Positions 11,954 through 49,411 of a DNA stretch of 64,000 bases are shown piece after piece (positions within the stretch are counted from its first letter, which is position 1; each line of letters begins with the position of its first letter). Below the pieces are notes generated by a model. That model was not told where the DNA came from. It did no database searches and was given only the letters and a program-made list of their open reading frames with translations. Position numbers and translations under genes: made by a program. This DNA comes from an uncultured Muribaculaceae bacterium (GTDB lineage: Bacteria > Bacteroidota > Bacteroidia > Bacteroidales > Muribaculaceae): NCBI GenBank assembly GCA_910577355.1, contig CAJTMY010000005.1:25095-89094 (forward strand), in the 5' to 3' direction.

Positions 11954-11961
11954 TAACTTTG
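11954..11961 (+). promoter_or_regulatory. Candidate -7 promoter box TAACTTTG for the nuo/atp block
   Basis: Exact TAnnTTTG match about 145 nt upstream of the nuoA ATG. It is the only consensus box I found upstream of or inside the 12107-29448 block's intergenic gaps. Confidence 0.5.
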
Positions 11962-12106
11962 CACACAGAAATACCTGAAATATGCCTTGATGTATAGGTC
12001 TTGGAAAGCGCAAACGGGTGATTAGCAAAGCAATGCCTGTCATGACAGCACCTCTTATGACTTGGACTGAAAGCAACCGGCTACAGATAACAATAATAGA
12101 AATAAT

Positions 12107-12487
12107 ATGATACCATTAGCCATTTTTGGAATCGAGAACAGCGGAGTGCTCGCCATCACGGCACTTCTTACTGGTGTCGCACTTGTGGCGCTGGCCATGT
12201 GGATCGCCGGGCTTATCTCGCCCCGCTCGTTCAATCCGCAGAAAGGCGAGGCCTACGAATGCGGCATCCCCACCCGCGGCGAAAGCATGTCGCAGTTTCA
12301 TGTGGGTTATTATTTGTTTGCAATCCTGTTCCTGATGTTCGACGTCGAGACTGTGTTCCTGTTTCCCTGGGCCGTGCGCATGCAGGCTCTCGGCGCTCAG
12401 GGTATCATCAGTATCGCCGTCTTTTTCGGCGTCTTAGTGCTGGGACTTGTCTATGCCTGGCGGAAAGGAGCACTTGAATGGAAGTAA
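12107..12487 (+). CDS. nuoA: NADH-quinone oxidoreductase subunit A
   Basis: 126 aa with 3 TM helices and the segments GEAYECG and YYLFAILFLMFDVETVFLFPW. Confidence 0.93.
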   Translation: MIPLAIFGIENSGVLAITALLTGVALVALAMWIAGLISPRSFNPQKGEAYECGIPTRGESMSQFHVGYYLFAILFLMFDVETVFLFPWAVRMQALGAQGIISIAVFFGVLVLGLVYAWRKGALEWK

Positions 12488-13086
12488 CTACCAAGAGCAT
12501 GCCCTACGAGGCATGGAAAGATAACGAGTATATAGAAGGACTCGTGAAGGAGCTGCAGGAGAGCGGCACCAATGTCATAGTCGGCTCTTTTGACAAGCTC
12601 ATCAACTGGGGGCGGTCCAACTCTCTCTGGCCACTCACTTTTGCCACCAGTTGCTGCGGCATCGAATTCGTGTCGCTCGGTGCGGCGCGTTTCGATATGG
12701 CGCGTTTTGGCTGGGAAGTAGCGCGTGCCTCGCCACGTCAGGCCGACTTCATGATGGTCGCCGGTACTATTGTGAACCGCATGGTGCCTGTGTTCCGTCG
12801 TCTCTACGATCAGCTCGCCGAGCCCAAGTATGTCATAGCCTGTGGATCCTGTGCCATCTCGGGCGGCCCGTTCCGCAAGAGCTACCATGTGGCCAAGGGC
12901 ATCGAGGATATCGTCCCCGTAGACGTGTTTGTGCCGGGCTGTCCTCCGCGTCCCGAAGCCATGATATACGGTATCATGCAGCTCTCGCGCAAGATAAAGG
13001 TGGAAAAATTCTTCGGCGGCGTGAACCGTCAGGAAAGCCGTGAGGAATTTCTTGCAAAGCATCCAATCCCCACCGACGGAGAATGA
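12478..13086 (+). CDS. nuoB: NADH-quinone oxidoreductase subunit B
   Basis: N2-cluster motifs SLWPLTFATSCCGIE, GSCAISGGPF and PGCPPRPE. Confidence 0.95.
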   Translation: MEVTTKSMPYEAWKDNEYIEGLVKELQESGTNVIVGSFDKLINWGRSNSLWPLTFATSCCGIEFVSLGAARFDMARFGWEVARASPRQADFMMVAGTIVNRMVPVFRRLYDQLAEPKYVIACGSCAISGGPFRKSYHVAKGIEDIVPVDVFVPGCPPRPEAMIYGIMQLSRKIKVEKFFGGVNRQESREEFLAKHPIPTDGE

Positions 13087-13133
13087 CCGTCGCATCCAAT
13101 TATTAATCAAAGCCTCAAACCAATCGAAAAGCA

Positions 13134-14765
13134 ATGGCTAATATACAGGAAAAGATTGCCGAACTCTTCCCCGCCGCCACCGTCGGAAACGATAACTCCG
13201 GTATAGTTCAGATTACCGTCGCCGACGAGCAGTGGCACGAAATGGCAAAGACCCTCCGCGACGACCCCGACACTTCGATGGACTATCTTGTCACCATCGT
13301 CGGTATGGATTGGGTGGATAAACTCGGCTGCATCTATTATCTGATGTCGACAAAGCACAACACCATGTGCTCCGTTAGAGTGACTGCCCCCGACCGCGAC
13401 AAACCATACATGCACTCCGTGTCCGACCTGTGGCGTATCGCCGAGATATACGAACGCGAAGTATACGATTTCTACGGCATCATTTTCATCAACAACCCCG
13501 ATATGCGTCGCCTTTTCCTCAACATTGATTGGGTAGGCTATCCACTGCGCAAGGATTATGATGAGGATCCGTCGATCAACCCCGTCTCGATCGAGAACGA
13601 GCGCCAGACCGATCTCACCTCCGTATATAAAGAGGAGAACGGCAAAGTGGTGAAGACCGAGCGCGAGATATTCCATAAGGATGACTTTGTGGTGAATATC
13701 GGCCCGCAGCACCCCGCCACACACGGCGTGCTGCGTTTCCGTACTGCGGTCGACGGCGAGACAATCAAGAAAATCGACGTGTATATGGGCTACATACACC
13801 GTGGTGTGGAGAAGCTCTGCGAGTCGCTTCAATATCCTCAGACACTTCACTTCCTCGACCGTCTTGATTATTTCTCTGGACAGATATATCACCATGGCCT
13901 GTGTCTGCTTTATGAAAAGGCTCTTGATATTCAGGTATCGCGTCGCGCGCAGGTCATCCGTGTGATGATGGACGAGCTGTCGCGTATCGCGTCGCACTGC
14001 CTGTTCATCGGCACATACTGCATGGATCTCGGTGCCACCACGATGCTTTTCTATACCCTCCGCGTGCGTGAGCAGATTCTCGACATATTTGAAAAAAGCT
14101 GCGGCGCCCGCATGACATTCAACTATGCATGCATAGGTGGCGTGATGCAGGATATCGCTCCCGACTTTGCCGACGACGTGCGTGCCCTGCTCGCTATTCT
14201 TCCAAAGAATATAAAGGAGTACAACAAGATATTCACAGGCAACGTAATCGCCAAAAACCGTATGGAGGGCGTCGGCACTCTCTCGCGCGAAGATGCCATC
14301 TCCTATGCGATCACAGGGCCTTCGGGACGCGCTTCCGGTTGGGCCTGCGACATGCGTAAACTGCAACCCTATTCCATCTATGGCGAACTTGATTTCGATG
14401 AGGTAGTGCGTGAGGAAGGCGATTCTATGGCCCGTTTCAAGGTGCGTATGGACGAGATGGAGCAGAGTGCCCGCATTCTTTCCCAGCTTGTCGACAATAT
14501 TCCAGACGGCGAGTATTGTGTGAAAGTGCCTAAGGTGGTGAAACTTCCGAAAGGCCAATGGTTCCAGCTCGTCGAGGGTTGCCGCGGCGCATTCGGCGTG
14601 TATGTCGAGAGCGACGGCTCCACCAAGCCTTTCCGTCTCAAGATCGCTCCCCCATGTCTGCCTCTCGCAGCCGTTGTCGACCATATCACTCAGGGCAGCA
14701 AGATTGCCGACCTTATCACAATCGGCGGCTCGCTCGATTATATCGTACCCGACATGGATCGCTAA
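13134..14765 (+). CDS. nuoCD: NADH-quinone oxidoreductase fused subunit C/D
   Basis: 543 aa. The NuoC-like N-terminus contains ERE-YDFYGI. The NuoD part contains NIGPQHPATHGVLR...GYIHRGVEK...PDMDR. Confidence 0.93.
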   Translation: MANIQEKIAELFPAATVGNDNSGIVQITVADEQWHEMAKTLRDDPDTSMDYLVTIVGMDWVDKLGCIYYLMSTKHNTMCSVRVTAPDRDKPYMHSVSDLWRIAEIYEREVYDFYGIIFINNPDMRRLFLNIDWVGYPLRKDYDEDPSINPVSIENERQTDLTSVYKEENGKVVKTEREIFHKDDFVVNIGPQHPATHGVLRFRTAVDGETIKKIDVYMGYIHRGVEKLCESLQYPQTLHFLDRLDYFSGQIYHHGLCLLYEKALDIQVSRRAQVIRVMMDELSRIASHCLFIGTYCMDLGATTMLFYTLRVREQILDIFEKSCGARMTFNYACIGGVMQDIAPDFADDVRALLAILPKNIKEYNKIFTGNVIAKNRMEGVGTLSREDAISYAITGPSGRASGWACDMRKLQPYSIYGELDFDEVVREEGDSMARFKVRMDEMEQSARILSQLVDNIPDGEYCVKVPKVVKLPKGQWFQLVEGCRGAFGVYVESDGSTKPFRLKIAPPCLPLAAVVDHITQGSKIADLITIGGSLDYIVPDMDR

Positions 14766-14786
14766 ACCATTCAACCGAAAGAGACT

Positions 14787-15887
14787 ATGTATAACTTATC
14801 AGACTCCCACATTTTTGATTTCTCGAGAGTGACAGGCCCCATTCACGATTGGCTCACAGGCTTTCTGCCCGGCTGGGCCGCCACTACGGTTGAATGTGTC
14901 GCCATCGGAGTAGGCCTCCTGCTGCTCTATGCGCTGCTGGCTCTTTTCTATATCTATTTCGAACGCAAGGTATGTGCGGCTTTCCAATGCCGGCTCGGCC
15001 CCAACCGCGTAGGCCCCTTCGGTCTGCTGCAGAGCTTCGCCGACATGTTCAAGATACTTATCAAGGAGCTTATCAGCCTCAATCATATCGATAAATTCCT
15101 CTTCGCGCTTGCGCCCTACCTTGTGATCATCGCCTCGATGCTATGCTTTGCGGTGCTTCCATGGGGCGACGGCCTCCAGATCATCGATTTCAACATCGGT
15201 ATCTTCTTCCTTATCGCCTGCTCCTCGATCGGAGTCCTAGGCATACTGCTCGCGGGTTGGTCGTCAAACAACAAATTCACCCTTATCGGAGCTCTCCGTT
15301 CCGGTGCACAGATGGTCAGCTACGAGCTGTCTATCGGCCTGTCGGTCGTAACGATGGTATGCCTTGCAGGCAGCATGAGTGTCACTGATATAGTACTCGC
15401 GCAGGGCGACGGATGGTTCATATTCAAAGGCCACATTGCCGCAATCATCGCATTTGTGATCTATATGATCGCAGGTACGGCCGAGACAAACCGCGGTCCA
15501 TTCGACCTTCCCGAGGCTGAGAGCGAGCTTACAGCAGGTTACCATACTGAATACTCCGGCATTCACTTCGGCTTCTTCTATCTTGCCGAGTATCTTAACC
15601 TCTTCATCGTCTCGGGTGTGGCCACTCTGCTGTTTTTTGGCGGCTGGATGCCTCTCCACATCCCCGGCCTTGACGGATTCAATGCCGTGATGGATTATAT
15701 ACCCACTCCAATATGGTTTATCGGTAAGGCAATAGCGCTGTCGTTTGTCATCATATGGTTCAAGTGGACTTTCCCGCGTCTGCGAATCGACCAGCTGCTT
15801 ACCCTCGAATGGAAATACCTGCTGCCCATAAGCCTCTTCAATCTCGCGCTGATGGTATGCTTCATTACCCTCGGGTGGCATTTCTGA
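14787..15887 (+). CDS. nuoH: NADH-quinone oxidoreductase subunit H
   Basis: [31 protein letters not shown] and [15 protein letters not shown] motifs. Confidence 0.95.
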
Positions 15888-15908
15888 ATATATCAACGAT
15901 TTAACTAA

Positions 15909-17435
<1,527 letters not shown>

Positions 17436-17456
17436 CAATACATTAAAACGACCGAC

Positions 17457-17690
17457 ATGACACTTAAAATAATATCCGCGCAGGAAGTCGTATTCGAGGG
17501 AGAGGTGTCCTCAGTGACACTTCCGGGCACGATGGGAGCGTTCACAGTGCTGCACAACCATGCCTCGCTTGTATCGACACTCTCGGCCGGCGAGATCATC
17601 TACACTGTCGGTGGCGACCGCCGGCAGCATGCTATCGGCGGCGGACTCGCCGACGTGGATAATAACATCGTGTCTGTCTGCTTATATTAA
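17457..17690 (+). CDS. atpC: F0F1 ATP synthase subunit epsilon (short form, beta-sandwich domain only)
   Basis: 77 aa: LKIISAQEVVFEGEVSSVTLPGTMGAFTVLHNHASLVS. It follows atpD by 21 nt. There is no C-terminal helical hairpin. Confidence 0.85.
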   Translation: MTLKIISAQEVVFEGEVSSVTLPGTMGAFTVLHNHASLVSTLSAGEIIYTVGGDRRQHAIGGGLADVDNNIVSVCLY

Positions 17691-17694
17691 GGCC

Positions 17695-18807
17695 ATGACC
17701 AGATATATCTGCATTCTCCTCCTGTCGCTGTTCATGTGTGCGGTGCCCGCGAATGCTTCGGGTACTGCCGATGAATCGCACGGAGATAAGATCAATCCCA
17801 AGGAAATCATCTTCGAGCACCTCGGCGACGGATATGGCTGGGAAGTGCCTTTCAATCATCACAAGCGTATCCCGCTGCCGATAATAGTATTTGGCTCCGA
17901 CGGTCTGCACATCTTTTCGTCGGCGCGTGTCACCGACGGACAGGTGTACAAGGACGGCAACGCCACATTCAAGATATCGACCGACGAGGAAGGCGGTCAT
18001 CACGGCAAGCTCGTCGAGATTGTAGACGGAAAAGAGGTTCGTCCTTTCGACATCTCCATTACCAAAAACGTGTGCGCGCTGTTTCTTGCGGTGATATTTG
18101 TAGCCTCGCTCCTCATATGGCTTGCGCGCCATCACAAGGCCAACGGATTCAAGGCTCCACGCAAAGGGCTCGGTGCCATCGAGGCACTAGTGACATTCAT
18201 CTACGACGGAGTCATCAAGTCGACCCTCCACGACAAAGCCCGCAAGTTCGCGCCCTATCTGCTCACGGTGTTCTTCTTTATTCTGGGCATGAACCTGCTC
18301 GGCCTCATAGTGGTCTTTCCCGGTGGTGCCAACCTCACGGGCAACATCGCCGTTACGCTTGTACTCGCGATTCTTACGTTTCTTGTCACTAACATCTGGG
18401 GCACGAAGCACTATTGGAAAGAGATATTCTGGCCCGATGTGCCCCTGTGGCTCAAGTTCCCGCTGCCCATCATGCCTATAATCGAGATATTCGGCATGTT
18501 CACAAAGCCCGCGGCACTTACCGTTCGACTGTTCGCCAACATGATGGGCGGCCATATGATTGTGCTTGTGCTCACACTGCTCATATTCATCTTCGCGGCC
18601 GTGAATCCGGTAGCCGGCGGCGCCACGACGGTGGTGTCGGTGCTGTTCTCGATATTCATGCTGCTGATAGATGTTCTGGTAAGTTTCATCCAGGCATATG
18701 TGTTCACAATGCTGTCCACGATATTCATCTCGCTCGCCCAGCAGCACGAAGAACATAAGAAAGATGAAAAACAGGCTGCCGCACCGGCTGTGGCGTCTGC
18801 CCGATAA
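17695..18807 (+). CDS. atpB: F0F1 ATP synthase subunit a with a long N-terminal extension
   Basis: The C-terminal part has the LTVRLFANMMGGH essential-Arg motif. I chose the start at MTRYICILLL (17695), 4 nt after atpC, over the overlapping ORF-track start at 17560. Confidence 0.9.
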   Translation: MTRYICILLLSLFMCAVPANASGTADESHGDKINPKEIIFEHLGDGYGWEVPFNHHKRIPLPIIVFGSDGLHIFSSARVTDGQVYKDGNATFKISTDEEGGHHGKLVEIVDGKEVRPFDISITKNVCALFLAVIFVASLLIWLARHHKANGFKAPRKGLGAIEALVTFIYDGVIKSTLHDKARKFAPYLLTVFFFILGMNLLGLIVVFPGGANLTGNIAVTLVLAILTFLVTNIWGTKHYWKEIFWPDVPLWLKFPLPIMPIIEIFGMFTKPAALTVRLFANMMGGHMIVLVLTLLIFIFAAVNPVAGGATTVVSVLFSIFMLLIDVLVSFIQAYVFTMLSTIFISLAQQHEEHKKDEKQAAAPAVASAR

Positions 18808-19107
<300 letters not shown>

Positions 19108-19134
19108 GCATCGTAACCTAACTCCCTAAAGCAC

Positions 19135-19629
19135 ATGGAACTATTCACCCCCGACTTCGGCCTCATCTTTTGGATGTTCGTGGCCTTCGCCGTCCTCTTC
19201 TTCATATTGTGGAAGTGGGCATGGCCCGTAGTCCTCAAGACCGTTGACTCGCGTGCCGATTTGATCGACAAGGGAGTGGAATATGCCCAAAGCGCCAAAG
19301 AACAGCTCGACCACGCCCGCGAAAGCGCGCAGGCCGTGCTTGATGACGTCCGCAAGCAGCAGGCCGACATTCTGCGCGAAGCCGATAAGCTCAAGACTCA
19401 GATAGTGGAGCAGGCTCGTTCGGCAGCGCAGGTCGAGGCGCAGAAAGTCATGGACAGCGCCAAGATGCAGATCGAACAGCAACAGAAAGAAGCCCAACTA
19501 CAATTCCGCAACCAAGTCAGCGAGTTTGCCCTTCAGATCGCCTCCAAAGTAGTGAAAAACGAAATGCAGGATCAGAAAGCGCAGACCCGGCTCGTCAATT
19601 CCATGCTCGACGAAATCGAAAGCAAATAA
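19135..19629 (+). CDS. atpF: F0F1 ATP synthase subunit b
   Basis: One N-terminal TM helix followed by a long charged helix. Identified by its position between atpE and atpH. Confidence 0.88.
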   Translation: MELFTPDFGLIFWMFVAFAVLFFILWKWAWPVVLKTVDSRADLIDKGVEYAQSAKEQLDHARESAQAVLDDVRKQQADILREADKLKTQIVEQARSAAQVEAQKVMDSAKMQIEQQQKEAQLQFRNQVSEFALQIASKVVKNEMQDQKAQTRLVNSMLDEIESK

Positions 19630-19638
19630 TTCAAGAAA

Positions 19639-20181
19639 ATGAACGAAGGTTTAATTCCGCGCCGCTACGCCAAAGCATTGTACAAAGTCGCTGTCGAACG
19701 CAAAGTCGACGAGCGTGTCTATATGTTGATGCAGACGCTTGCTTCATCTTTCGACTCCATGCCCGCTCTTCAGACAATGGTGTCAAACCCGTTTGTCGCT
19801 CCCGAAGAGAAAGAAAAGATAATGACAACGGCCGCCGGTGCAACCGACGCGGACAGCACCTTCTCGGATTTCCTGAAATTGCTCGACCGTAACAAGCGTG
19901 TCGACATGCTCGGCGGCATAGCCCGTGCATACATCGATATTTACCGCAGGCAGCACAATATCCGCAAGGTGGAAGTAGTGTCGGCCGCGCCACTCGATTC
20001 GGCCGTGCTTCAGCGTATCACATCTCTCGTCGAGAAGCATCTGCACGGAGCCACCATGGAATTTTCAACCTCGGTCGATCCCTCTCTCATCGGCGGCTTT
20101 GTGATAAACGTCGACAACGAACGCCTCGACGCCTCCCTGAGCAATCAGTTCAAGGAGTTGCGTCAAAGTCTCTTAAATTAA
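19639..20181 (+). CDS. atpH: F0F1 ATP synthase subunit delta (OSCP)
   Basis: [13 protein letters not shown] at the N-terminus and [17 protein letters not shown] at the C-terminus. Confidence 0.9.
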
Positions 20182-20221
20182 TTCTCCATTACAAAAACAC
20201 TCACCCCGCTATAAGCCCACA

Positions 20222-21793
20222 ATGATTAATCCAAGCGAGATTTCTGAAGTCTTAAAACAGCAGCTCGAAAGTGTCAATACAAAGGTCAACTTCGAAGAAA
20301 CAGGCAAGGTGCTCGAAGTCGGCGACGGCGTCGCACACGTATACGGCCTCGACAATGTATGCGCCAACGAACTCGTAGAATTTGAAAACGGCGTGAAAGG
20401 CGTGGCCCTCAACCTCGAAGAAAGCAACGTCGGCGTCATACTGCTCAACAATGTCGACAAGGTCACCGAAGGCATGAGCGTGCGCCGTACTGGCGAGATC
20501 GCTTCAATCCCTGTGGGCGAAGGCCTTCTCGGCCGCGTAATAAACGTGTTGGGCGAGCCTGTCGACGGCCGTGGCCCCATCGACGGCAAGCTCATGCGTC
20601 TGCCGCTCGAGCGCAAGGCTCCCGGCGTCATCTACCGTCAGCCCGTCACCCAGCCGTTGCAGACCGGTATCAAGGCTGTCGACGCCATGGTGCCCATCGG
20701 TCGCGGCCAGCGCGAGCTCATAATCGGCGACCGTCAGATAGGCAAGACAGCCATCGCCATCGACACCATAATTAACCAGCGCCAGAATTTTGAGCAAGGC
20801 AAACCCGTATACTGCATATATGTGGCCATCGGCCAAAAGGCATCTACCGTCGCAGCACTTGTAGAGACACTGCGCCAGCACGGAGCCCTCGACTATACCG
20901 TAGTCGTGGCCGCAAACGCGTCCGACTCGGCATCGATGCGCTATTATGCCCCCTTTGCCGGTGTGGCCATCGGCGAGTATTTCCGCGACTCGGGCCGCGA
21001 TGCCCTTATCGTATACGATGACTTGTCAAAACAAGCTGTAGCATATCGCGAGATCTCGCTTATCCTCAAGCGTCCATCAGGCCGCGAGGCATACCCCGGC
21101 GATATCTTCTACCTGCACTCGCGTCTGCTCGAACGTGCCGCAAAGATCATCGACAACGACTCTATAGCCGCCACGATGAACGACCTGCCTCCGGTGCTCA
21201 AGCCCATGGTAAAAGGCGGCGGATCGCTCACCGCGCTCCCCATAATCGAGACACAGGCCGGCGACGTATCGGCATACATCCCCACCAACGTCATATCAAT
21301 CACCGACGGCCAGATATACCTTGAGACCGCACTCTTCAACCGCGGTATACGTCCCGCCATCAACGTGGGCATATCGGTATCGCGTGTAGGCGGCAATGCC
21401 CAGATCAAATCTATGAAAAAAGTCGCAGGCACGCTCAAGATCGACCAGGCACAGTTCCGCGAGCTCGAATCGTTCACCAAATTCGGCGGCGATGTCGATG
21501 CCGTCACAGCCCGCGTGATCGACAAGGGACGCAAGAATGAGCGCCTGCTCATACAGCCTCAATACCACCCCGTGCCTGTCGCCGAGGAAGTGGCTGTGAT
21601 ATATTGCGGCGTGAACGGTCTGCTCGAGAACGTTCCCCTCGATAAAGTCGCCGAATTCGAGCATCAGTTCATACAACTGCTGCATGCCAAGTATCAGGCA
21701 GATGTGCTTGATGTGATCGCCCAGGGCAAACTCACCGACGACGTCATGACCAAGCTGAAAGACGCCGCATCACAGATCACAGCACAATTCTGA
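20222..21793 (+). CDS. atpA: F0F1 ATP synthase subunit alpha
   Basis: Walker A GDRQIGKT, plus [16 protein letters not shown] and ITDGQIYLE. Confidence 0.98.
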
Positions 21794-21835
21794 GCTGTAA
21801 ACAAAAAGAAACACAACCAAGCATCACCCGCATAA

Positions 21836-22717
21836 ATGGCAACATTAAGAGAACTTAAAGGTCGCATAGGCTCGGTGGCGTCTTCCGAGAAGATCACCGG
21901 CGCCATGAAGATGATTTCCTCAGCCAAGATGCATAAGGCCGAGGGTGCCCTCCGGCGCCTCAAGCCGTATCGCTCCACGATTGAGTCGATCATCGGCAAC
22001 CTGCTCACCGCCGACGCCACATTCACGTCGCCGCTGGCCGATCCCAGAGCCGTCGAACGCCTCACAGTGGTGGTGCTCGGCAGCGACGACGGTCTGTGCG
22101 GCGCCTACAACGCCAATCTCGCCAAATATCTTGGCGAGCGTATTGCCTCCATGCGTGCCACATACGGTGCCGCGCTGCGAGTCACCATAATACCGGTCGG
22201 TAAGAAAATGGCCAAGGCCGTGGCGCGCCTCTCCGGAGCAGGAACAGCAATCCGGATTCCCGACGTGGATTCCAAGAGCGAAGGCGACAAAGTCAAGGAC
22301 TTTCAGGCATCCCTTATAGAATCATTCATCAGCAAGGAGACAGATGCTGTGGATGTCGTGTATATGAACTATAAGAGCGCCGGCCGGCAGGTGGCAGTAA
22401 TGGATCGCATCCTGCCGCTGTCGCCCGAAGTGTTCACTTCGGAAGGTGTGAAGGAGTCGGCCCGGCCATATATTTTCGAACCCGATGCCCAGACAATCTT
22501 CTCGAGTGTGTTGCCGATGTACATATTATCGCTGGTACAGGAAGTGTTTGTCGAAAACCGCGCCTCGGAGCAGGCCGCCCGTGTAATGGCCATGCAGAGC
22601 GCCAACGACAATGCCAAAAAACTCCTCGACCAGCTGCGACTCGAATACAACAAACTGCGCCAGGCATCCATCACTACCGAACTGCTCGACATCGTCGGCG
22701 GCCAGGTTCGCGACTGA
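21836..22717 (+). CDS. atpG: F0F1 ATP synthase subunit gamma
   Basis: N-terminal LRELKGRIGSVASSEKITGAMKMISSAKM and C-terminal YNKLRQASITTELLDIVGG. Confidence 0.95.
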   Translation: MATLRELKGRIGSVASSEKITGAMKMISSAKMHKAEGALRRLKPYRSTIESIIGNLLTADATFTSPLADPRAVERLTVVVLGSDDGLCGAYNANLAKYLGERIASMRATYGAALRVTIIPVGKKMAKAVARLSGAGTAIRIPDVDSKSEGDKVKDFQASLIESFISKETDAVDVVYMNYKSAGRQVAVMDRILPLSPEVFTSEGVKESARPYIFEPDAQTIFSSVLPMYILSLVQEVFVENRASEQAARVMAMQSANDNAKKLLDQLRLEYNKLRQASITTELLDIVGGQVRD

Positions 22718-22774
22718 CGCCTGTATAATATATAGAATAAGAAACCATCCAACGAATATAACAATCATTAATCA

Positions 22775-23512
22775 ATGGGTAGTGTAAAAGACTATTTTCA
22801 ATCATTGGGTTCCGGTGTGCTGTCGCTCCTGAAAGGAATGCAGGTCACCGGCAAGGAATTTGTCACCCCCAAGATTACCGAGCGTTATCCCGAAGACCGC
22901 GAGACATACAAATGGCCCGAACGATTCCGCGCCGTGCTCGAGCTCATCTACGATAACGAAGGCAATCACAAATGTATCGCCTGCGGCACCTGCGAGCGCA
23001 ACTGCCCCAACGGTACCATCACGATCGAGTCAAAGATGGTCGACACTCCGGCCGGCACAAAGAAGAAAAAACTCGACAACTATATCTACGACCTTGGTTC
23101 GTGCACATTCTGTCAGCTGTGTGTCACCACATGTCCGACCGGTGCGTTGCGCTTTTCCAACGACTTCGAGCAGAGTGTCTTCACCCGCTCGAAACTGGTG
23201 AAAAAGCTCAATTACCTGCCCGAGAAGCCCGAGCCTGAGCTTACCGAAGAAGAAAAAGCCCGCCTCGCAGCCGAAAAAGAGGCCAAGATAGCCGCCGCCA
23301 AGGCCAAGGCCGCTGCGCTCAAAGCCGAACGTGAGGCCGCTGCCGGCGCTGCTCCCGCTCCTGCGGCCAAAGCCGACGATGCCGCCGCAAAGGCTCTCGC
23401 CGCCGCCAAAGGCGACCCCGAGAAAGAAGCAAAGATACGTGCCGCTCTCGAACGCGCCGCCGCCTTAAAGGCCCAGCGCGAGGCTGCCGGCAAAGATGCC
23501 GGCGATAAATAA
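22775..23512 (+). CDS. nuoI: NADH-quinone oxidoreductase subunit I with a roughly 95-aa Ala/Lys/Glu-rich C-terminal extension
   Basis: Two 4Fe-4S motifs, CIACGTCERNCP and CTFCQLCVTTCP. The core ends near aa 149. The tail (23222-23512) is low-complexity with two 23-aa repeats. Confidence 0.9.
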   Translation: MGSVKDYFQSLGSGVLSLLKGMQVTGKEFVTPKITERYPEDRETYKWPERFRAVLELIYDNEGNHKCIACGTCERNCPNGTITIESKMVDTPAGTKKKKLDNYIYDLGSCTFCQLCVTTCPTGALRFSNDFEQSVFTRSKLVKKLNYLPEKPEPELTEEEKARLAAEKEAKIAAAKAKAAALKAEREAAAGAAPAPAAKADDAAAKALAAAKGDPEKEAKIRAALERAAALKAQREAAGKDAGDK

Positions 23513-23539
23513 CACCGATAATTATAATAAACCAATAAT

Positions 23540-24052
23540 ATGGAATCAGTAGGAAGTATCATCTTGTACACTGTCGTCTGTCTGGCGATAGTTATCTTCT
23601 CGGTACTCGCCGTGACCACCCGCAAGATCCTCCGCGCTGCCACATATCTGCTTTTCACCCTCTTTGCCGCCGCAGTAGTCTACTTTATGCTCGACTACCA
23701 GTTCCTTGGCGCGGTGCAGATTGCGGTATATGCAGGCGGTATCGTGGTGCTGTTTGTCTTCGCGATACTGCTCACGTCGCATCCCGGAAGCAACTCCGAA
23801 CGTCTTGCATCCAAGCGCCGCGTGCTCGGCCTCATCGCCTCCCTTCTCATGCTGGGCGTCTGCGGCTACTCGCTGCTCGCCCGTTGCAACCTTTTTGCCG
23901 GCAAACCCGAGATGGAAGCCCTCGACATGCAGACCGTAGGCACAGCCATGATGGGAACCGGCGCCGGACAGTATCTCCTCCCCTTCGAGGCTGTCAGCGT
24001 TCTGTTACTGGCATGTATAATCGGCGGCATAGTAGTCGCCCGCAAACGTTAA
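23540..24052 (+). CDS. nuoJ: NADH-quinone oxidoreductase subunit J
   Basis: 170 aa, 5 TM helices, with GAVQIAVYAGGIVVLFVF. Confidence 0.9.
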   Translation: MESVGSIILYTVVCLAIVIFSVLAVTTRKILRAATYLLFTLFAAAVVYFMLDYQFLGAVQIAVYAGGIVVLFVFAILLTSHPGSNSERLASKRRVLGLIASLLMLGVCGYSLLARCNLFAGKPEMEALDMQTVGTAMMGTGAGQYLLPFEAVSVLLLACIIGGIVVARKR

Positions 24053-24061
24053 TGACGCGCT

Positions 24062-24373
24062 ATGGAAATTAAAGCAATTTACTACCTTATCCCGTCGCTG
24101 ATAATGTTCTGCTGCGGCCTCTACGGCTTCCTCACACGCCGTAATATGATCGCGATGTTGATCTCACTCGAACTGATGCTCAATGCCGTCGATATGAACT
24201 TTGTCATCTTCAACCGCTTCCTTTTCCCGGGACAGCTCGAAGGCATGATGTTCACTCTCTTCGCCATTGCTATCGCGGCAGCCGAGACAGCCCTCGCGAT
24301 CGCCATAATCATAAATGTGTACCGCTCGGTCAACCAAGTCGATGTGCGTACGCTTAACCAAATGAAATTCTGA
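24062..24373 (+). CDS. nuoK: NADH-quinone oxidoreductase subunit K
   Basis: 103 aa, 3 TM helices, with SLELMLNAV and AAAETALAIAII. Confidence 0.92.
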   Translation: MEIKAIYYLIPSLIMFCCGLYGFLTRRNMIAMLISLELMLNAVDMNFVIFNRFLFPGQLEGMMFTLFAIAIAAAETALAIAIIINVYRSVNQVDVRTLNQMKF

Positions 24374-24378
24374 CCGAC

Positions 24379-26388
24379 ATGAGCGCTACGATACCTGTTT
24401 TAATTCTGGCTATACCACTGTTCATGTTCATCTTCCTCGGCCTTGCCGGCAAGAAGATGAGCCATATGCTGGCCGGTGTGCTCGGAACCCTCGGCATGGG
24501 CACCGTGCTCGTGCTGTCATACTACACGGCGTTCCATTATTTCTTCAGTGGTGACGCATCGTTTATCAACGAGGCCGGTGAGCGCCTCCAGTATGTTGTG
24601 TTCAATCAGACATGGCTGCAATTTACCGATCAGCTCGTCATCCGCCTCGGGTTCTTCCTCGATCCCATCTCAGCCATGATGCTTGTGGTCATCACCACAA
24701 TATCGTTCATGGTGCATCTCTACAGCCTCGGTTATATGCGCGACCATCACGGCGTGTTTGAGAAGGGCTTCCAACGCTTCTATGCATTCCTGTCGCTCTT
24801 CAGCTTCTCGATGCTCGGACTGGTTGTAGCCACCAATATCTTCCAGATGTACATCTTCTGGGAGCTTGTGGGTGCCTCCTCCTACCTCCTTATAGGCTTC
24901 TACTATACAAAGAACTCGGCAGTATCTGCATCCAAGAAAGCATTCATCGTCACTCGATTTGCCGACCTCGGCTTCCTTATAGGCATATTGGTGCTTTCGT
25001 ACTACACAGGGACATTCGATTTCACATCGCTTACTTCAGTTCCCGTCGAGGGTATGGCAAACGTCTATCAGGTAGACCTCTCAACTCCCCAGACAGTGCT
25101 CGGTATCTTCCAGACAAGCGCCGCTCCCATGTTCATGGGCGCATCTGTGCTTACCTGGGCTTTGGTGCTCATATTCATGGGCGGCATGGGCAAATCGGCC
25201 ATGATGCCTCTCCACATCTGGCTCCCCGACGCCATGGAAGGCCCGACACCTGTATCGGCGCTAATCCACGCCGCTACTATGGTCGTTGCAGGTGTATACC
25301 TCGTCGCCCGTCTCTTCCCGCTATATCTCATGGAGGAGTCCGCTCTGGTCATCGTCACTGTAGTGGGTGCTCTCACGGCATTCTATGCCGCAATGGTGGC
25401 CTGCGCGCAGATCGATATCAAGCGTGTGCTCGCTTTTTCCACAATCTCGCAGATAGCGTTCATGATGGTGTCGTTGGGTGTGGCTCGTCCCGAGTATCAC
25501 GAAGGTCTAGGTTATATGGCCTCGATGTTCCACCTGTTCACACACGCCATGTTCAAGGCCTTGCTATTCCTCGGTGCCGGCGCGCTTATCCACGCCATCG
25601 GTTCCAACGACTATACAGCCATGCACGGCCTGCGCAAATATATGCCCGTGACACATTGGACATTCCTCATCGGCTGTCTTGCCATTGCAGGCATCATTCC
25701 TTTCTCAGGTTTCTTCTCCAAGGACGAGATACTGAGCGCCTGCGGCAATTACAGCCCGCTCGTATACATATGGATGTCGATGGTAGCCGGTCTTACCGCC
25801 TTCTACATGTTCCGTCTCTACTACCTCATATTCTGGTGGAAGGAACACAAGGTGCATGAAGGACATCATGCTCCCCACGACCAGCCCTGGACCATGTCGC
25901 TCCCCCTCATCATTCTCGCCCTCATCTCTTGCGTGGCAGGTTTCATTCCTTTCGGAAAGTTTGTGAGCTGGAACGGTGAGTCATACGACTTCATGGCCCA
26001 CTTCGACTGGGGAGTGGCTTCAATCAGCCTTATCGTGGCTGTCCTCGCCATCATACTCGCCACAGTGATGTACCGCAAGGAGAATCCTCTGCCCGAGAAG
26101 TTCAAGAACGCACTTCCCGCCCTTTGGGACTGGTGTCACCACCGCTTCTATTGGGACGAACTATATATGTTCATCACCCACAAGATCATATTCAACGGCA
26201 TATGCCGTCCGCTGGCATGGTTTGACCGTCACATCATCGACGGCACCATGGACTCCTTCGCCATCCTCACCAACAAGGCATCCGAAGCTATCCGTCCGCT
26301 GCAGTCCGGACAAGTTCAGATGTACGTGTGGATATATATTATCGGCGCCCTCCTGCTTGGCGGAGTTACCCTTGTGTGTCTGATCTAA
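24379..26388 (+). CDS. nuoL: NADH-quinone oxidoreductase subunit L
   Basis: 669-aa antiporter-like subunit with WLPDAMEGPTPVSALIHAATMV. Confidence 0.95.
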   Translation: MSATIPVLILAIPLFMFIFLGLAGKKMSHMLAGVLGTLGMGTVLVLSYYTAFHYFFSGDASFINEAGERLQYVVFNQTWLQFTDQLVIRLGFFLDPISAMMLVVITTISFMVHLYSLGYMRDHHGVFEKGFQRFYAFLSLFSFSMLGLVVATNIFQMYIFWELVGASSYLLIGFYYTKNSAVSASKKAFIVTRFADLGFLIGILVLSYYTGTFDFTSLTSVPVEGMANVYQVDLSTPQTVLGIFQTSAAPMFMGASVLTWALVLIFMGGMGKSAMMPLHIWLPDAMEGPTPVSALIHAATMVVAGVYLVARLFPLYLMEESALVIVTVVGALTAFYAAMVACAQIDIKRVLAFSTISQIAFMMVSLGVARPEYHEGLGYMASMFHLFTHAMFKALLFLGAGALIHAIGSNDYTAMHGLRKYMPVTHWTFLIGCLAIAGIIPFSGFFSKDEILSACGNYSPLVYIWMSMVAGLTAFYMFRLYYLIFWWKEHKVHEGHHAPHDQPWTMSLPLIILALISCVAGFIPFGKFVSWNGESYDFMAHFDWGVASISLIVAVLAIILATVMYRKENPLPEKFKNALPALWDWCHHRFYWDELYMFITHKIIFNGICRPLAWFDRHIIDGTMDSFAILTNKASEAIRPLQSGQVQMYVWIYIIGALLLGGVTLVCLI

Positions 26389-26422
26389 CCAACCCAAACC
26401 AATCGGAAAAAAGTAATTCAGC

Positions 26423-27952
26423 ATGTTCACCAATATATTAATCTACTTTGTGGTCATCCCGCTTGTGATGCTCGGCCTGCTCGCACTGTGCCGCAACATC
26501 AGGCAAATCCGTGCGGTGGCGGTGGTTGGCTCACTCGCGCTTATAGGCCTGTCGGTCTATGTGCTACTCGAATACCTCGGCATTCGTGCCGCAGGCAACG
26601 AAGACCCTATGCTCTTCGTAGACTCATGGACATGGTTCGCCCCCCTCAACATCCACCTCGCAGTGGGTGTCGACGGCATATCGATAGCCATGCTCCTTCT
26701 TTCGTCCATTATAGTGTTTGCAGGCTCTTTCGCCTCGTGGACAATCGCGCAGCCCAAAGAATTTTTCCTGTGGCTTATCCTTCTGTCCACCGGCGTGTTC
26801 GGTTTCTTCATCTCGATAGACATGTTCACCATGTTCATGTTCTACGAGGTGGCTCTTATCCCCATGTATCTGCTTATCGGCGTGTGGGGGTCGGGCAACA
26901 AGAACTACTCGGCCATGAAGCTTACACTCATGCTTATGGGCGGCTCGGCATTCCTTATGCTCGGTCTCATCGGCATATATTATCACTCGGCACCCGAAGG
27001 CGCCCCTCTTACATGGAATCTGCTTGAGATCGTCGACAATGCCGCCATACCTCACGGCTGGCAGTCGTTCCTCTTCCCGATGACTTTCGTAGGCTTCGGC
27101 GTGCTCGGCGCCATGTTCCCCTTCCATACATGGTCGCCCGACGGTCATGCCTCGGCTCCCACAGCCGTGTCGATGCTCCATGCAGGCGTGCTCATGAAAC
27201 TCGGCGGCTACGGCTGCTTCCGCGTGGCTATCTATACTATGCCTCAGGCTGCACACGAGCTGTCATGGATATTTCTTATCCTCACGGGTATCTCGGTGGT
27301 ATACGGCGCTTTCTGCGCATGTGTCAAGACCGACCTCAAGTACATCAACGCATACTCGTCGGTAAGCCACTGCGGCCTCGTGCTCTTCGCTATACTCATG
27401 CTTAACGAGACAGCAATGACCGGTGCCATCATGCAGATGCTCTCGCATGGTCTTATGACAGCTCTCTTCTTCGCCCTCATCGGCATGATATACGGCCGCA
27501 CTCACACTCGCGAAATCACGCAGATGGGAGGCATGATGCAGATACTCCCGTACCTGTCGGTATGCTACGTCATAGCAGGTATGGCATCTCTCGGTCTGCC
27601 GGGTCTGTCGGGCTTCGTAGCCGAGATGACCATATTTGTAGGCTCATTCAAGGCCGGTATGGCCGATTACCTCGCCGGTGACGGCTCGCTGCGACTGGTA
27701 TTCACCATCATCGCCTGCTGCTCGATAGTGATTACCGCAGTGTATATCCTGCGCGTTGTCGGCAAGCTGCTTTTTGGCCCGGTCTACGACGATCATCACC
27801 GCAGCCTCACCGACGCCACATGGTGGGAACGACTTTCCACGGCCACACTCATAGTGTGCGTGGCTGCAATCGGTTGCTTCCCCAACTTCTTCAACAATCT
27901 CATCAACTTTACATTCCGACCGGCCATCTTCAGTGTGCTGGGCATTAATTAA
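26423..27952 (+). CDS. nuoM: NADH-quinone oxidoreductase subunit M
   Basis: 509-aa antiporter-like subunit with HTWSPDGHASAPTAVSMLHAGVLMKLG. Confidence 0.95.
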   Translation: MFTNILIYFVVIPLVMLGLLALCRNIRQIRAVAVVGSLALIGLSVYVLLEYLGIRAAGNEDPMLFVDSWTWFAPLNIHLAVGVDGISIAMLLLSSIIVFAGSFASWTIAQPKEFFLWLILLSTGVFGFFISIDMFTMFMFYEVALIPMYLLIGVWGSGNKNYSAMKLTLMLMGGSAFLMLGLIGIYYHSAPEGAPLTWNLLEIVDNAAIPHGWQSFLFPMTFVGFGVLGAMFPFHTWSPDGHASAPTAVSMLHAGVLMKLGGYGCFRVAIYTMPQAAHELSWIFLILTGISVVYGAFCACVKTDLKYINAYSSVSHCGLVLFAILMLNETAMTGAIMQMLSHGLMTALFFALIGMIYGRTHTREITQMGGMMQILPYLSVCYVIAGMASLGLPGLSGFVAEMTIFVGSFKAGMADYLAGDGSLRLVFTIIACCSIVITAVYILRVVGKLLFGPVYDDHHRSLTDATWWERLSTATLIVCVAAIGCFPNFFNNLINFTFRPAIFSVLGIN

Positions 27953-27966
27953 AAGAACGTCAAGCA

Positions 27967-29448
27967 ATGGATTACTCACAGTTTTTAGCAATGAAACAGG
28001 AAATCGCCCTCTTGGTGGTTTTCCTGCTGGTCTTCCTCTACGACACGTTCATGCCCCGCGGCACGCAGAAAGGCTTGCCTGCTTTCGCAAGCATCACCAT
28101 GCTTCTGCTCACCGTGGCCGGCTGTCTGGGCTGCTGTCTGTGCTCATGCACCGATCAGGTGGCTTTCGGCGGCATGTACGAGACATCCCCAGTCATCTCC
28201 GCAATCAAGAATATTCTCAATATCGGTGTGGTCATAGTGCTGATACAGTCGATCAAGTGGGCCAACGGCGAGTTCATGACCATGCGACGCGGCGAGTTCT
28301 ACGAGTTGCTGCTCGTAACACTCTTCGGCATGTATCTTATGATCTCCGGACGCCACTTCCTTGTGTTTGTCATCGGCCTCGAATGCGCCTCGTTGCCCCT
28401 TGCGGCAATGGTCGCCTTCGACAAGAACCGCTACGAAAGCCACGAGGCCGCCGTCAAGTACATTCTTACCGCCGTATTCTCGTCGGCCATATTCATGATG
28501 GGACTAAGCTTCGTATACGCGTTGGCCGGTTCGCTCTACTTCGAGAACATCTACAACGCTCTCTTCGTAAGCTCCACTTCCACCATGCTCGTCATCGCTC
28601 TTGCCTTCGTTATCGCCGGTATAGGCTTCAAGCTGTCGCTAGTGCCCTTCCATCTGTGGACCGCCGACGTATATCAGGGCGCTCCCACGTCGGTCACCTC
28701 CTACCTGTCGGTGATTTCCAAGGGTGCCACCGCCTTTGCCTTCCTTGTAGTCATGGCGCAGGTATTCGGCTCGCTATACTCGGAGGTGTGGGAATGGATG
28801 CTCTATGCGCTTATCATCCTCACTATCACGGTAGGTAACCTCTTCGCCATCCGCCAGCGCAACATGAAGCGTTTCCTCGCATTCTCGTCAATCTCTCAGG
28901 CCGGTTACATAATGCTCGGCGTCATCGCCTACAATACTCTCGGCATGGCAGCCATGATGTTCTACATCCTTGTATACATCTTCTCCAACCTCGGAGCATT
29001 CGGCGTAATCGGCGCCATCGAGAATGCAAGCGGCAAAGTATCCATGGACGACTACCGCGGCCTGTACAAGACCAATCCGCGTCTGGCATTCACTATGATG
29101 CTCGCCATGTTCTCGCTCGCAGGTATTCCGCCTTTTGCAGGATTCTTCTCCAAGTTCTTCATCTTCACCGGAGCTTTGCAGGGAGCATCGGTTGCCATCT
29201 ACGTGCTCGTGCTCATCGCATTGATCAACACCATCGTGTCGCTATACTACTACCTCCTTGTGGTGAAGGCGATGTTCATCAGCGACGAGGAGTGCGTCAT
29301 AGCACCCTTCCGCTCATCGTGCAGCGAGCGCCTCGGTATGTGGATCGCCCTTTTCGGCATCATGTTCCTCGGCCTGCTCAGCCCTGTATACGATTCGCTT
29401 ATCGATCTCAGTTCGCTCAGTTCGATAGGCATGTACTTCATACGCTGA
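27967..29448 (+). CDS. nuoN: NADH-quinone oxidoreductase subunit N
   Basis: 493-aa antiporter-like subunit with PFHLWTADVYQGAPTSVTSYL. It is the last gene before the terminator. Confidence 0.95.
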   Translation: MDYSQFLAMKQEIALLVVFLLVFLYDTFMPRGTQKGLPAFASITMLLLTVAGCLGCCLCSCTDQVAFGGMYETSPVISAIKNILNIGVVIVLIQSIKWANGEFMTMRRGEFYELLLVTLFGMYLMISGRHFLVFVIGLECASLPLAAMVAFDKNRYESHEAAVKYILTAVFSSAIFMMGLSFVYALAGSLYFENIYNALFVSSTSTMLVIALAFVIAGIGFKLSLVPFHLWTADVYQGAPTSVTSYLSVISKGATAFAFLVVMAQVFGSLYSEVWEWMLYALIILTITVGNLFAIRQRNMKRFLAFSSISQAGYIMLGVIAYNTLGMAAMMFYILVYIFSNLGAFGVIGAIENASGKVSMDDYRGLYKTNPRLAFTMMLAMFSLAGIPPFAGFFSKFFIFTGALQGASVAIYVLVLIALINTIVSLYYYLLVVKAMFISDEECVIAPFRSSCSERLGMWIALFGIMFLGLLSPVYDSLIDLSSLSSIGMYFIR

Positions 29449-29470
29449 TATATCCATACTCATCATACCG

Positions 29471-29507
29471 GCACGCGCCCCGCACACGCAGGGTGCGTGC
29501 TTTTTTT
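29471..29507 (+). terminator. Intrinsic terminator after nuoN
   Basis: GC-rich 10-bp stem gcacgcgccc / gggtgcgtgc (one mismatch) with a 10-nt loop, followed by TTTTTTT. Confidence 0.8.
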
Positions 29508-47955: not shown

Positions 47956-49404
47956 TTATTTGGAAGATAAATATTTGTCCATTTCGGCTGCGGCGTGTCG
48001 GCCATCGCCCATGGCGAGGATCACTGTGGCGCCGCCGCGCACTATGTCGCCGCCGGCAAAGATGAGAGGTATAGACGACTGCAAGGATTCGTTCACAGCG
48101 ATAGTGCCGCGTTTTGTCACGTCAAGGCCGTCTATCGAGTCGGGTATGAGCGGATTTGGCGACACGCCCACGCTCACTATCACCACATCGACGGGTATCT
48201 CGTCGATGGCGCCTTCGATGGGTACCGGACTGCGGCGTCCGCTTGCGTCGGGCTCGCCGAGCTGCATGCGCTGCACGCGCATGGCGCGCACCCTGCCGCG
48301 TTCGTCGGCAAGATATTCTACAGGGTTGGAGAGGGTCATGAATTCGACGCCCTCCTCTTTGGCGTGCTCGACTTCCTCGCGGCGTGCCGGCATCTCGTCC
48401 TCGCTGCGGCGATATACCAAAAAGGCTTTTTCGGCGCCCATTCGCAGAGCGGTGCGCACCGAGTCCATGGCGGTGTTTCCGCCGCCTATCACTGCCACGC
48501 GGGCGCCGCGCGGCACAGGAGTGGCATAGCCTTCGGTGCCGGCGTGCATGAGGTTGATACGAGTTAGATATTCATTGGACGACAGTATGTTTATGTAATT
48601 CTCGCCGGGTATGCCCATGAAACGAGGCAGACCGGCCCCAGAGGCCACGAACAGAGCTTCGTAGCCGCGTTCGAGCAGTTCGTCATATCCGAGCGTCTTG
48701 CCCACGATGGTATCGGTCTCAAATTTCACACCCAGTGCGCGCAGCGAGTCAAGCTCGGCATCGACCACGGCGTTGGGCAGGCGGAACTCGGGAATGCCGT
48801 ATTTGAGCACACCGCCTATCTCGTGCAAAGCCTCGAATACCGTCACATCGTAGCCGCGCTTGGCCATATCGCCTGCAAACGATAGGGCGCATGGTCCCGA
48901 TCCGGCCACTGCCACTTTCCTGCCGTTTGGGACGGTAAGCTCTACGGCGGGTTTCTCGGCCATGTCGCGCTCGGCATCTGCCGCAAAACGTTCGAGCCAT
49001 CCGATAGCCACGGGCGGCTTTTTCATCTTGTTATATATGCATTTCGATTCGCATTGGCGTTCCTGAGGACATACGCGGCCGCATACCGCCGGCAACGCGC
49101 TTGTGGTGCGAAGCACGGCGGCGGCTTCGCCGGGGCACCCGCGCTGTATGTTCTTGATAAATCCCGGTATGTCTATACCCACCGGGCAGCCTGTGACGCA
49201 TTGCGGGTCGGGGCAGTCGAGGCAGCGCGTGGCTTCCTCGCGGGCTTGTGAGGTCGAGAGACCGAGATTTACTTCCTCGTTGGTATGTATGCGGTAGTCG
49301 GGTGCCAGCATCGGCATCTTGGCGCGTGGAATCGATGTGCGTTCCTTGGCTGTGAGGGCGTCGCGCAGCTCGCGGCGCCATTCTGTATCGCGATTGGTTG
49401 CCAT
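47956..49404 (-). CDS. NADPH-dependent glutamate-synthase small-subunit-like Fe-S flavoprotein (NfnB-like)
   Basis: Two 4Fe-4S Cys clusters (CLDCPDPQCVTGCP, CPQERQCESKC), then the Rossmann motifs VAVAGSGPCALSFA and VIGGGNTAMD. The start is set at MATNRDTEW (49404) to avoid overlap with the upstream gene. Confidence 0.85.
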   Translation of the reverse strand: MATNRDTEWRRELRDALTAKERTSIPRAKMPMLAPDYRIHTNEEVNLGLSTSQAREEATRCLDCPDPQCVTGCPVGIDIPGFIKNIQRGCPGEAAAVLRTTSALPAVCGRVCPQERQCESKCIYNKMKKPPVAIGWLERFAADAERDMAEKPAVELTVPNGRKVAVAGSGPCALSFAGDMAKRGYDVTVFEALHEIGGVLKYGIPEFRLPNAVVDAELDSLRALGVKFETDTIVGKTLGYDELLERGYEALFVASGAGLPRFMGIPGENYINILSSNEYLTRINLMHAGTEGYATPVPRGARVAVIGGGNTAMDSVRTALRMGAEKAFLVYRRSEDEMPARREEVEHAKEEGVEFMTLSNPVEYLADERGRVRAMRVQRMQLGEPDASGRRSPVPIEGAIDEIPVDVVIVSVGVSPNPLIPDSIDGLDVTKRGTIAVNESLQSSIPLIFAGGDIVRGGATVILAMGDGRHAAAEMDKYLSSK

Positions 49405-49411
49405 ATTGTTA

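Follow-up and report, generated by a model that had tools for sequence, protein, structure and literature searches.

A complete F1Fo ATP synthase operon nested between nuoH and nuoI: a lineage-wide arrangement in Muribaculaceae and Coprobacter

The DNA analyzed here is a stretch of 64,000 nucleotides (nt) from an uncultured Muribaculaceae bacterium (GenBank assembly GCA_910577355.1, contig CAJTMY010000005.1), referred to below as the window. Its plus strand carries, between positions 12107 and 29448, the genes of a nuo respiratory complex and of an F1Fo ATP synthase in the order nuoA-B-CD-H, atpD-C-B-E-F-H-A-G, nuoI-J-K-L-M-N, as established from the listing of open reading frames (ORFs) and from Pfam domains. 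All eight ATP synthase genes (15933-22717) are located between nuoH and nuoI, where they form an intervening stretch of 6.8 kb within a run of 18 genes and about 17.3 kb. This feature is real, ancient and lineage-wide, and the promoter and terminator signals make a single respiratory transcription unit probable. The best overall explanation, which we believe somewhat more than we doubt, combines one relocation of the atp genes, an 18-gene block kept intact and a main transcript that would extend from the nuoA promoter to the hairpin located behind nuoN. The features of the locus are the following (aa, amino acids):

11954..11961, plus strand: consensus Bacteroidetes -7 box (TAACTTTG), about 146 nt before the nuoA ATG, presumed main promoter
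12107..12487, plus strand: nuoA, 126 aa (PF00507, E = 1e-35)
12478..13086, plus strand: nuoB, 202 aa, overlapping nuoA by 10 nt (PF01058, E = 2e-28)
13134..14765, plus strand: nuoCD fusion (30-kDa and 49-kDa domains), 543 aa (PF00329 and PF00346)
14787..15887, plus strand: nuoH, 366 aa (PF00146, E = 6e-118)
15888..15932, plus strand: junction 1 (nuoH to atpD), 45 nt, A/C-rich, unstructured, without -7 box or terminator
15933..17435, plus strand: atpD (F1 beta), 500 aa (PF02874, PF00006, PF22919)
17457..17690, plus strand: atpC (F1 epsilon), 77 aa, beta-sandwich domain only (PF02823)
17695..18807, plus strand: atpB (Fo a), 370 aa, N-terminal DUF8433 and signal-peptide-like start (PF00119)
18853..19107, plus strand: atpE (Fo c), 84 aa (PF00137)
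19135..19629, plus strand: atpF (Fo b), 164 aa (PF00430)
19639..20181, plus strand: atpH (F1 delta/OSCP), 180 aa (PF00213)
20222..21793, plus strand: atpA (F1 alpha), 523 aa (PF02874, PF00006, PF00306)
21836..22717, plus strand: atpG (F1 gamma), 293 aa (PF00231)
22718..22774, plus strand: junction 2 (atpG to nuoI), 57 nt, A-rich, without -7 box or terminator
22775..23512, plus strand: nuoI, 245 aa, 2x[4Fe-4S] core and C-terminal tail of about 95 aa rich in Ala, Lys and Glu (Fer4 families)
23540..24052, plus strand: nuoJ, 170 aa (PF00499)
24062..24373, plus strand: nuoK, 103 aa (PF00420)
24379..26388, plus strand: nuoL, 669 aa (PF00662 and PF00361)
26423..27952, plus strand: nuoM, 509 aa (PF00361)
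27967..29448, plus strand: nuoN, 493 aa (PF00361)
about 29470..29507, plus strand: intrinsic terminator, GC-rich hairpin and U7, 22 nt past the nuoN stop (-25.9 kcal/mol, z = -5.39)

The 17 intergenic gaps are all of 57 nt or less, nuoA and nuoB sharing a 10-nt overlap. For atpB, the longest ORF would extend from 17560 and overlap atpC; public assemblies place the start at 17695 (370 aa), as the first-pass annotation had also done, and this start was retained. Pfam recognises each of the eleven nuo subunits (NuoA, B, C, D, H, I, J, K, L, M and N), with C and D fused, and no NuoE, NuoF or NuoG domain is found in any ORF of at least 110 aa in the window. The eight F-type subunits alpha, beta, gamma, delta, epsilon, a, b and c are likewise complete. 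The nuo string itself is not continuous, since nuoH and nuoI are kept apart by the atp genes. The first-pass annotation of this DNA, made from the letters and the ORFs without database searches, had already described this gene order together with seams of 45 nt (15888-15932) and 57 nt (22718-22774) and the upper limit of 57 nt for all gaps; ORF and Pfam analysis reproduced the order, and the lengths were recovered exactly.

In order to determine the distribution of the nested order, GTDB was surveyed with one genome per species, and the best 80 of 556 matches were retained, in which NuoH is 76-97% identical to that of the window. The gene order of each locus was read by tblastn using the 18 window proteins. 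The 80 loci are labelled Muribaculaceae, Muribaculum, Paramuribaculum, Candidatus (Ca.) Amulumruptor and Ca. Limisoma, along with many loosely labelled metagenome-assembled genomes (MAGs), and include cultured isolates (L043, L064) as well as a complete chromosome (L068, OX620685.1). In 78 of these loci nuoH is followed by atpD; these are all the assessable ones, the remaining two stopping at a contig edge. Sixty-two of the 80 extend as far as the atpG-nuoI junction, and wherever enough DNA is available the genes stand in the same order. What lies between nuoH and nuoI had been put forward in the first-pass annotation as a check on rarity: throughout the assessable Muribaculaceae-like loci, it is the atp set. 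A degenerate DNA pattern was also built for the first junction, consisting of the NuoH motif WKYLxP, a spacer of 105-165 nt and the AtpD motif IGPVVDV. This pattern matches 66/82 nested loci and none of the eight canonical loci, in which nuoH adjoins nuoI. Over the metagenome collection it matches at least 120 stretches; both nuoH and atpD were detected by tblastn in the nested arrangement in 116 of the 120 listed, the other four being cut by a contig end. Among the listed stretches the identity of NuoH to that of the window falls to 69-70%, and these most distant proteins are the NuoH of Coprobacter fastidiosus NSB1. The complete genome of this strain (AP028032.1) displays nuoA-B-CD-H, atpD-C-B-E-F-H-A-G and nuoI-J-K-L in this order, with seams of 47 and 57 nt, and a second Coprobacter-like NuoH (WP_044225813.1) is found in the same nested context. 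Coprobacter is placed by the NCBI in Barnesiellaceae. The nested order is thus the rule in Muribaculaceae and also occurs in Coprobacter, and it is annotated in hundreds of public genomes, type-strain and complete genomes included. The nuoH-atpD seam can serve as a simple and specific synteny marker for this clade.

The uninterrupted arrangement was found in six other lineages of Bacteroidales or Bacteroidota, where nuoH adjoins nuoI with gaps of 2-43 nt. They comprise two environmental Bacteroidota lineages (NuoH 60-64% identical, nuoC and nuoD separate), Ca. Merdivivens pullicola (L087/L088), a related gut lineage of which one member is named Alistipes shahii, the P0122 group and one MAG labelled Bacteroidaceae. 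The order in Bacteroides was taken from the literature; the best 120 matches of each homologue search fell within one clade. In B. fragilis, nuo consists of ten consecutive genes, BF638R_0841-0850 (nuoA-B-CD-H-I-J-K-L-M-N), without nuoEFG (PMC7002350), and the atp genes form a separate string starting with beta and epsilon (beta-epsilon-a-c-b-delta-alpha-gamma; PMC4154653). Both published orders agree with what the first-pass annotation had given as established, namely that nuoH and nuoI are adjacent in characterised Bacteroides and that atpDC-BEFHAG is the usual Bacteroidota order. In a neighbour-joining tree of NuoA, NuoB and NuoH rooted on the environmental lineages, the nested loci are monophyletic, forming one clade in 87/100 bootstraps, and the Muribaculaceae-like loci form a clade in 100/100. 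Because this tree groups the nested loci together, it suggests, with moderate confidence, a single ancient insertion in the common ancestor of Muribaculaceae and Coprobacter. A separate observation concerns Ca. Merdivivens (L087/L088), a genus that the NCBI files under Muribaculaceae incertae sedis. It possesses the canonical nuoH-nuoI order and a NuoI of 146 aa, and falls outside the nested clade in the same tree; its family placement looks doubtful.

Transcription signals were then considered along the whole block. On the plus strand, the consensus TAnnTTTG is absent from 12107-29448, where about 3.8 occurrences would be expected from its density in the window (14 per 64 kb), and a box lies upstream of nuoA at 11954-11961, where the first-pass annotation had placed the only consensus copy. 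The latter had also located the first convincing terminator behind nuoN. The corresponding hairpin, followed by U7, is indeed the only strong combination of hairpin and U-run, with none of 200 shuffled sequences being as stable (z = -5.4), and both seams are unstructured relative to shuffles (z = +2.2 for junction 1 and +0.3 for junction 2). The nuoA leader (11968-12115) is similarly unstructured and folds no better than its shuffles, and Rfam returned nothing with E below 0.69 at the seams or in this leader. A structured RNA, riboswitch or processing site at these three places was rejected on the grounds of the Rfam and folding results.

The same picture is obtained from the relatives. A -7 box is present within 400 nt upstream of nuoA in 66/67 loci and within 300 nt in 104/110 nested loci, its position peaking at -100 to -150; the spacing between box and nuoA is about 100-150 nt in 57/110 relatives, the leader of the window being about 146 nt long. 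The seams have median lengths of 43 nt (nuoH-atpD, n=81) and 48 nt (atpG-nuoI, n=65), comparable to ordinary intra-operon gaps. A search that also takes in the final 80 nt of the gene preceding each seam finds a consensus -7 box in 0/81 nuoH-atpD and 0/65 atpG-nuoI seams. The density of TAnnTTTG amounts to 0.19/kb within the block versus 0.60/kb in the upstream flanks. A terminator-like hairpin with a T-run was detected in one of 197 nuoH-atpD seams and in two of 84 atpG-nuoI seams. The second seam exceeds 90 nt in two loci (L070, L076), and hairpins are visible by eye in both of these gaps; when L070, L076 and a third locus (L117) are compared, the scan classified the atpG-nuoI gap of L117 alone as terminator-like. 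In some lineages, transcription might be partly attenuated between atp and nuoI-N.

The block accordingly has the sequence properties of a single operon: genes on the same strand, short gaps and neither an internal consensus promoter nor an intrinsic terminator. An atp unit equipped with its own promoter and terminator is not apparent at the sequence level, in the window or in its relatives. Since the seams are devoid of separate control signals, the main transcript most likely starts at the nuoA promoter, and read-through from there is favored, by a modest margin of belief, as the main mode of expression. In the scenario that we propose, a native Bacteroidales F1Fo operon (atpDC-BEFHAG) would have moved, on a single occasion, into the short space between nuoH and nuoI of an 11-subunit nuo operon lacking nuoEFG. 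This event would have taken place in the common ancestor of Muribaculaceae and Coprobacter, the 18-gene block having presumably stayed intact ever since. Separate control signals at the two seams would have disappeared or would never have been retained. The main transcript would begin ahead of nuoA at a promoter of the sigma-ABfr type (-7 box, 11954-11961), run through nuoABCDH, the eight atp genes and nuoIJKLMN, and end at the hairpin and U-run at about 29470-29507. As a consequence, the proton-driven ATP synthase would be expressed together with the proton pump, as one unit. The first-pass annotation had suggested such a super-operon. This proposal was strengthened because some 200 independent loci display short seams without consensus promoter or terminator, while the nuoA promoter is nearly always present; co-transcription itself is still what we infer from these signals.

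The alternative that survives best states that the genes are contiguous and nevertheless separately transcribed. Weak or non-consensus internal promoters would drive atp and nuoI-N, and the nesting would be neutral and frozen, devoid of regulatory meaning. We regard this as the less likely account, although it deserves serious consideration. It could draw on -7 boxes with one mismatch, which 38% of loci possess around the nuoH-atpD seam and 31% around the atpG-nuoI seam, somewhat above the 8-29% observed in other internal gaps. Those of the first seam mostly overlap the conserved His-Phe-stop codons at the end of nuoH, which would explain the near-matches, and none occurs at either seam of the window. 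Boxes matching the full consensus also occur in coding sequence: 10/194 loci have one in nuoH, 100-150 nt ahead of atpD, and many loci have them in atpB; in the 100 nt directly preceding atpD, however, the count is 0/194. Upstream of nuoI, 6/84 loci have a box within 300 nt, the nearest being at least 200 nt away. The blocks are moreover not divided by terminators, and the seams are as short as gaps inside an operon. Expression data could also be read in favor of separate transcripts, as nuo expression in B. fragilis is poor in rich medium (PMC7002350) and we would expect atp to be constitutive.

Several points weigh against a single origin followed by read-through and are gathered here. Sequence alone does not reveal promoters that deviate from the consensus, RNA processing or differences in mRNA stability. 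Subunits are probably required in different quantities for the ATP synthase and for the nuo complex, and this speaks for an additional level of regulation. The excess of one-mismatch boxes at the seams belongs here as well; at the first seam they may be coding by-products, or weak internal promoters in some species. Finally, the basis of the single origin is thin: few canonical outgroups were available, the order having been read directly in the six lineages listed above and taken from the literature for Bacteroides, and the underlying survey spans the best 80 of 556 GTDB matches. Two observations on the distribution of the boxes may be added. In many of the loci L003-L210, the one-mismatch boxes CATTTTTG, TTAGTTTG and TATTTTTT occur in the last 25 nt or so of nuoH and the first 10 nt or so of the gap. 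In the relatives, considering the loci of the first survey that have both nuoA and nuoK, atpB contains 39 full-consensus occurrences of TAnnTTTG in total, and a further 15 follow nuoCD, near its gap to nuoH.

A second alternative concerns the nature of the nested enzyme. It could be an extra, specialised ATPase of the N-ATPase or Na+-coupled kind, acquired by transfer, with the housekeeping F1Fo encoded elsewhere. The order beginning with beta and epsilon does resemble that of N-ATPases (PMC4154653). The same order is however that of the B. fragilis atp locus (PMC4154653), and none of the other N-ATPase (atpDCQRBEFAG) features was found. A delta/OSCP subunit is present (PF00213), and no AtpQ- or AtpR-like genes are located between atpC and atpB, where the 4-nt gap is too small to accommodate these accessory genes. 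The carboxylate of the c subunit encoded by atpE lies within ...ALIEGVAL..., without the Q...E-S/T motif associated with Na+ binding, and our own reading of this motif points to H+ coupling. AtpC, with its 77 aa, lacks the C-terminal helical domain, and a short epsilon of this type is typical of Bacteroidetes and Chlorobi (PMC4154653). In AtpB, a signal-peptide-like start and DUF8433 (17695-18200) precede the a-subunit core. The composition of the atp genes matches that of their flanks, with a GC content of 0.51-0.58 versus 0.50-0.58 for the nuo parts. The nested set is a normal F-type ATP synthase, and a specialised additional enzyme appears quite improbable.

An assembly chimera, or a recent mobile-element insertion confined to the genome of the window, was judged so improbable that it can be set aside: some short metagenome contigs are indeed chimeric inside the conserved atpD gene, but the same order is present in more than 200 independent assemblies, two complete chromosomes and cultured isolates, with no transposase, integrase or tRNA nearby and a homogeneous composition. 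The exact NuoH protein of the window was retrieved from 159 index blocks of public assemblies, and the 24 longest contigs, which were read, all display the same neighbourhood; the nuoH-atp-nuoI order is likewise present in two complete genomes, OX620685.1 (L068) and AP028032.1 (L211). Because this protein recurs in the same context across independent assemblies and complete genomes, misassembly, which the first-pass annotation had asked to be checked, was rejected. The nested order is real and is not a peculiarity of a single genome. Mobile-element insertion was also rejected, as no transposase or integrase domain was found by Pfam among the window ORFs scanned, no tRNA is present in the 64 kb and no composition shift accompanies the atp genes. 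The first-pass annotation had likewise noted no such elements and a composition similar to that of the flanks. As an incidental observation, three short metagenome contigs (L143, L153, L206) encode AtpD proteins whose N-terminal halves are identical to Coprobacter-like sequences and whose C-terminal halves differ, one of them being without the Bacteroidetes-type insertion. These three are assembly chimeras within the highly conserved atpD, and they call for caution when short contigs are used as evidence.

Two further characteristics of the window deserve mention. The tail of NuoI (23222-23512) is a low-complexity sequence of about 95 aa, rich in Ala, Lys and Glu, that makes up the C-terminal third of nuoI. 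The length of NuoI ranges from 155 to 350 aa in the nested relatives (median 210) and from 146 to 174 aa in most canonical comparators. A link between this tail and the nesting was rejected, and the two are considered independent, because the NuoI of Coprobacter (156 aa) has no tail although its locus is nested, and because a comparable tail is found in a canonical lineage (L213). On the minus strand, at 47956-50194, two adjacent genes encode proteins with Fer4_20 and Pyr_redox_2 domains (503 aa) and with DHODB_Fe-S_bind and NAD_binding_1 domains (260 aa). These domains match a ferredoxin/NAD(P) oxidoreductase of the NfnAB type or one resembling the small subunit of glutamate synthase. The pair might have a bearing on which electron donor the NuoEFG-less complex uses.

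Every part of the locus belongs to a known family, and the novelty resides in the layout, that is, a complete atp operon splitting nuo, rather than in a new mechanism or system. No description of nuoH-atp-nuoI nesting was found in the full-text literature, covered mostly outside subscription journals. Neither the Bacteroides study used for comparison (PMC7002350) nor the survey of F-ATPase loci (PMC4154653) describes it, and the latter makes no mention of nuo. The remark in the first-pass annotation that no description of the arrangement was known to it is upheld within this literature. The rarity that it implied is not, because the order holds in all 78 assessable Muribaculaceae-like loci and in Coprobacter, and is thus common and annotated in its own family.

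The arrangement places a complete operon for one essential machine inside the operon of another, and has done so without disruption across a family dominant in the guts of rodents and also common among other animals. In B. fragilis, nuo makes zero contribution to NADH oxidation, and both the electron donor and the importance of the NuoEFG-less complex in Bacteroidales are still open (PMC7002350). If a single transcript is produced, this complex would be expressed whenever the ATP synthase is, and would represent a core energy-conserving enzyme in the clade, unlike the accessory that is poorly expressed by B. fragilis in rich medium (PMC7002350). Such co-regulation may also have some selective value. 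Mutations or insertions in nuoA-H would then be polar on the ATP synthase, which matters for Muribaculaceae genetics and for transposon-fitness data. The most far-reaching formulation would be that of a lineage-defining respiratory super-operon of 18 genes and about 17.3 kb that became fixed in the ancestor shared by Muribaculaceae and Coprobacter and in which one promoter serves a NuoEFG-less proton pump and the ATP synthase. In the Bacteroidales family that dominates the mouse gut, the complex would thereby lie at the core of energy conservation, expressed constitutively and under joint regulation. Our belief and our doubt in this formulation are evenly balanced.

The locus can finally be compared with known systems. 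Its closest counterpart for nuo is the 11-subunit Bacteroides operon (BF638R_0841-0850), with which it shares the eleven subunits, their order, the fused nuoCD and the absence of nuoE, nuoF and nuoG from the cluster. By analogy, its product presumably functions as an ion-pumping quinone reductase with an unknown electron donor other than NADH (PMC7002350). The window differs in that the string is split at nuoH/nuoI by 6.8 kb containing the eight atp genes and in the long low-complexity tail of NuoI. With the Bacteroidota F1Fo operon, as known from B. fragilis (PMC4154653), the atp genes have in common the eight subunits, the order, the short epsilon and the N-terminal extension of AtpB; they differ by the lack of a consensus promoter and terminator of their own and by being embedded in another operon. 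The C. fastidiosus NSB1 locus (AP028032.1, about 1,778,072-1,799,148) shows the 18 genes in an identical order and has seams similar to those of the window (47 and 57 nt). It belongs to another family according to the NCBI (Barnesiellaceae), and its NuoH is 70% identical, its NuoI is tail-less with 156 aa and its flanking genes are different.

More distant systems share only some of these traits. In Escherichia coli, nuoA-N and atpIBEFHAGDC are two separate loci; the protein families are homologous to those of the window, but nuoEFG is present and the atp genes follow another order. The photosynthesis gene cluster of Rhodobacter and the ribosomal str-S10-spc-alpha region are read-through super-operons made of operons in tandem. 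Adjacent modules are expressed there by transcription across module borders, which is probably how the locus of the window works as well. The operons of those super-operons succeed one another, whereas in the window a complete operon is nested within its host operon and splits it in two.

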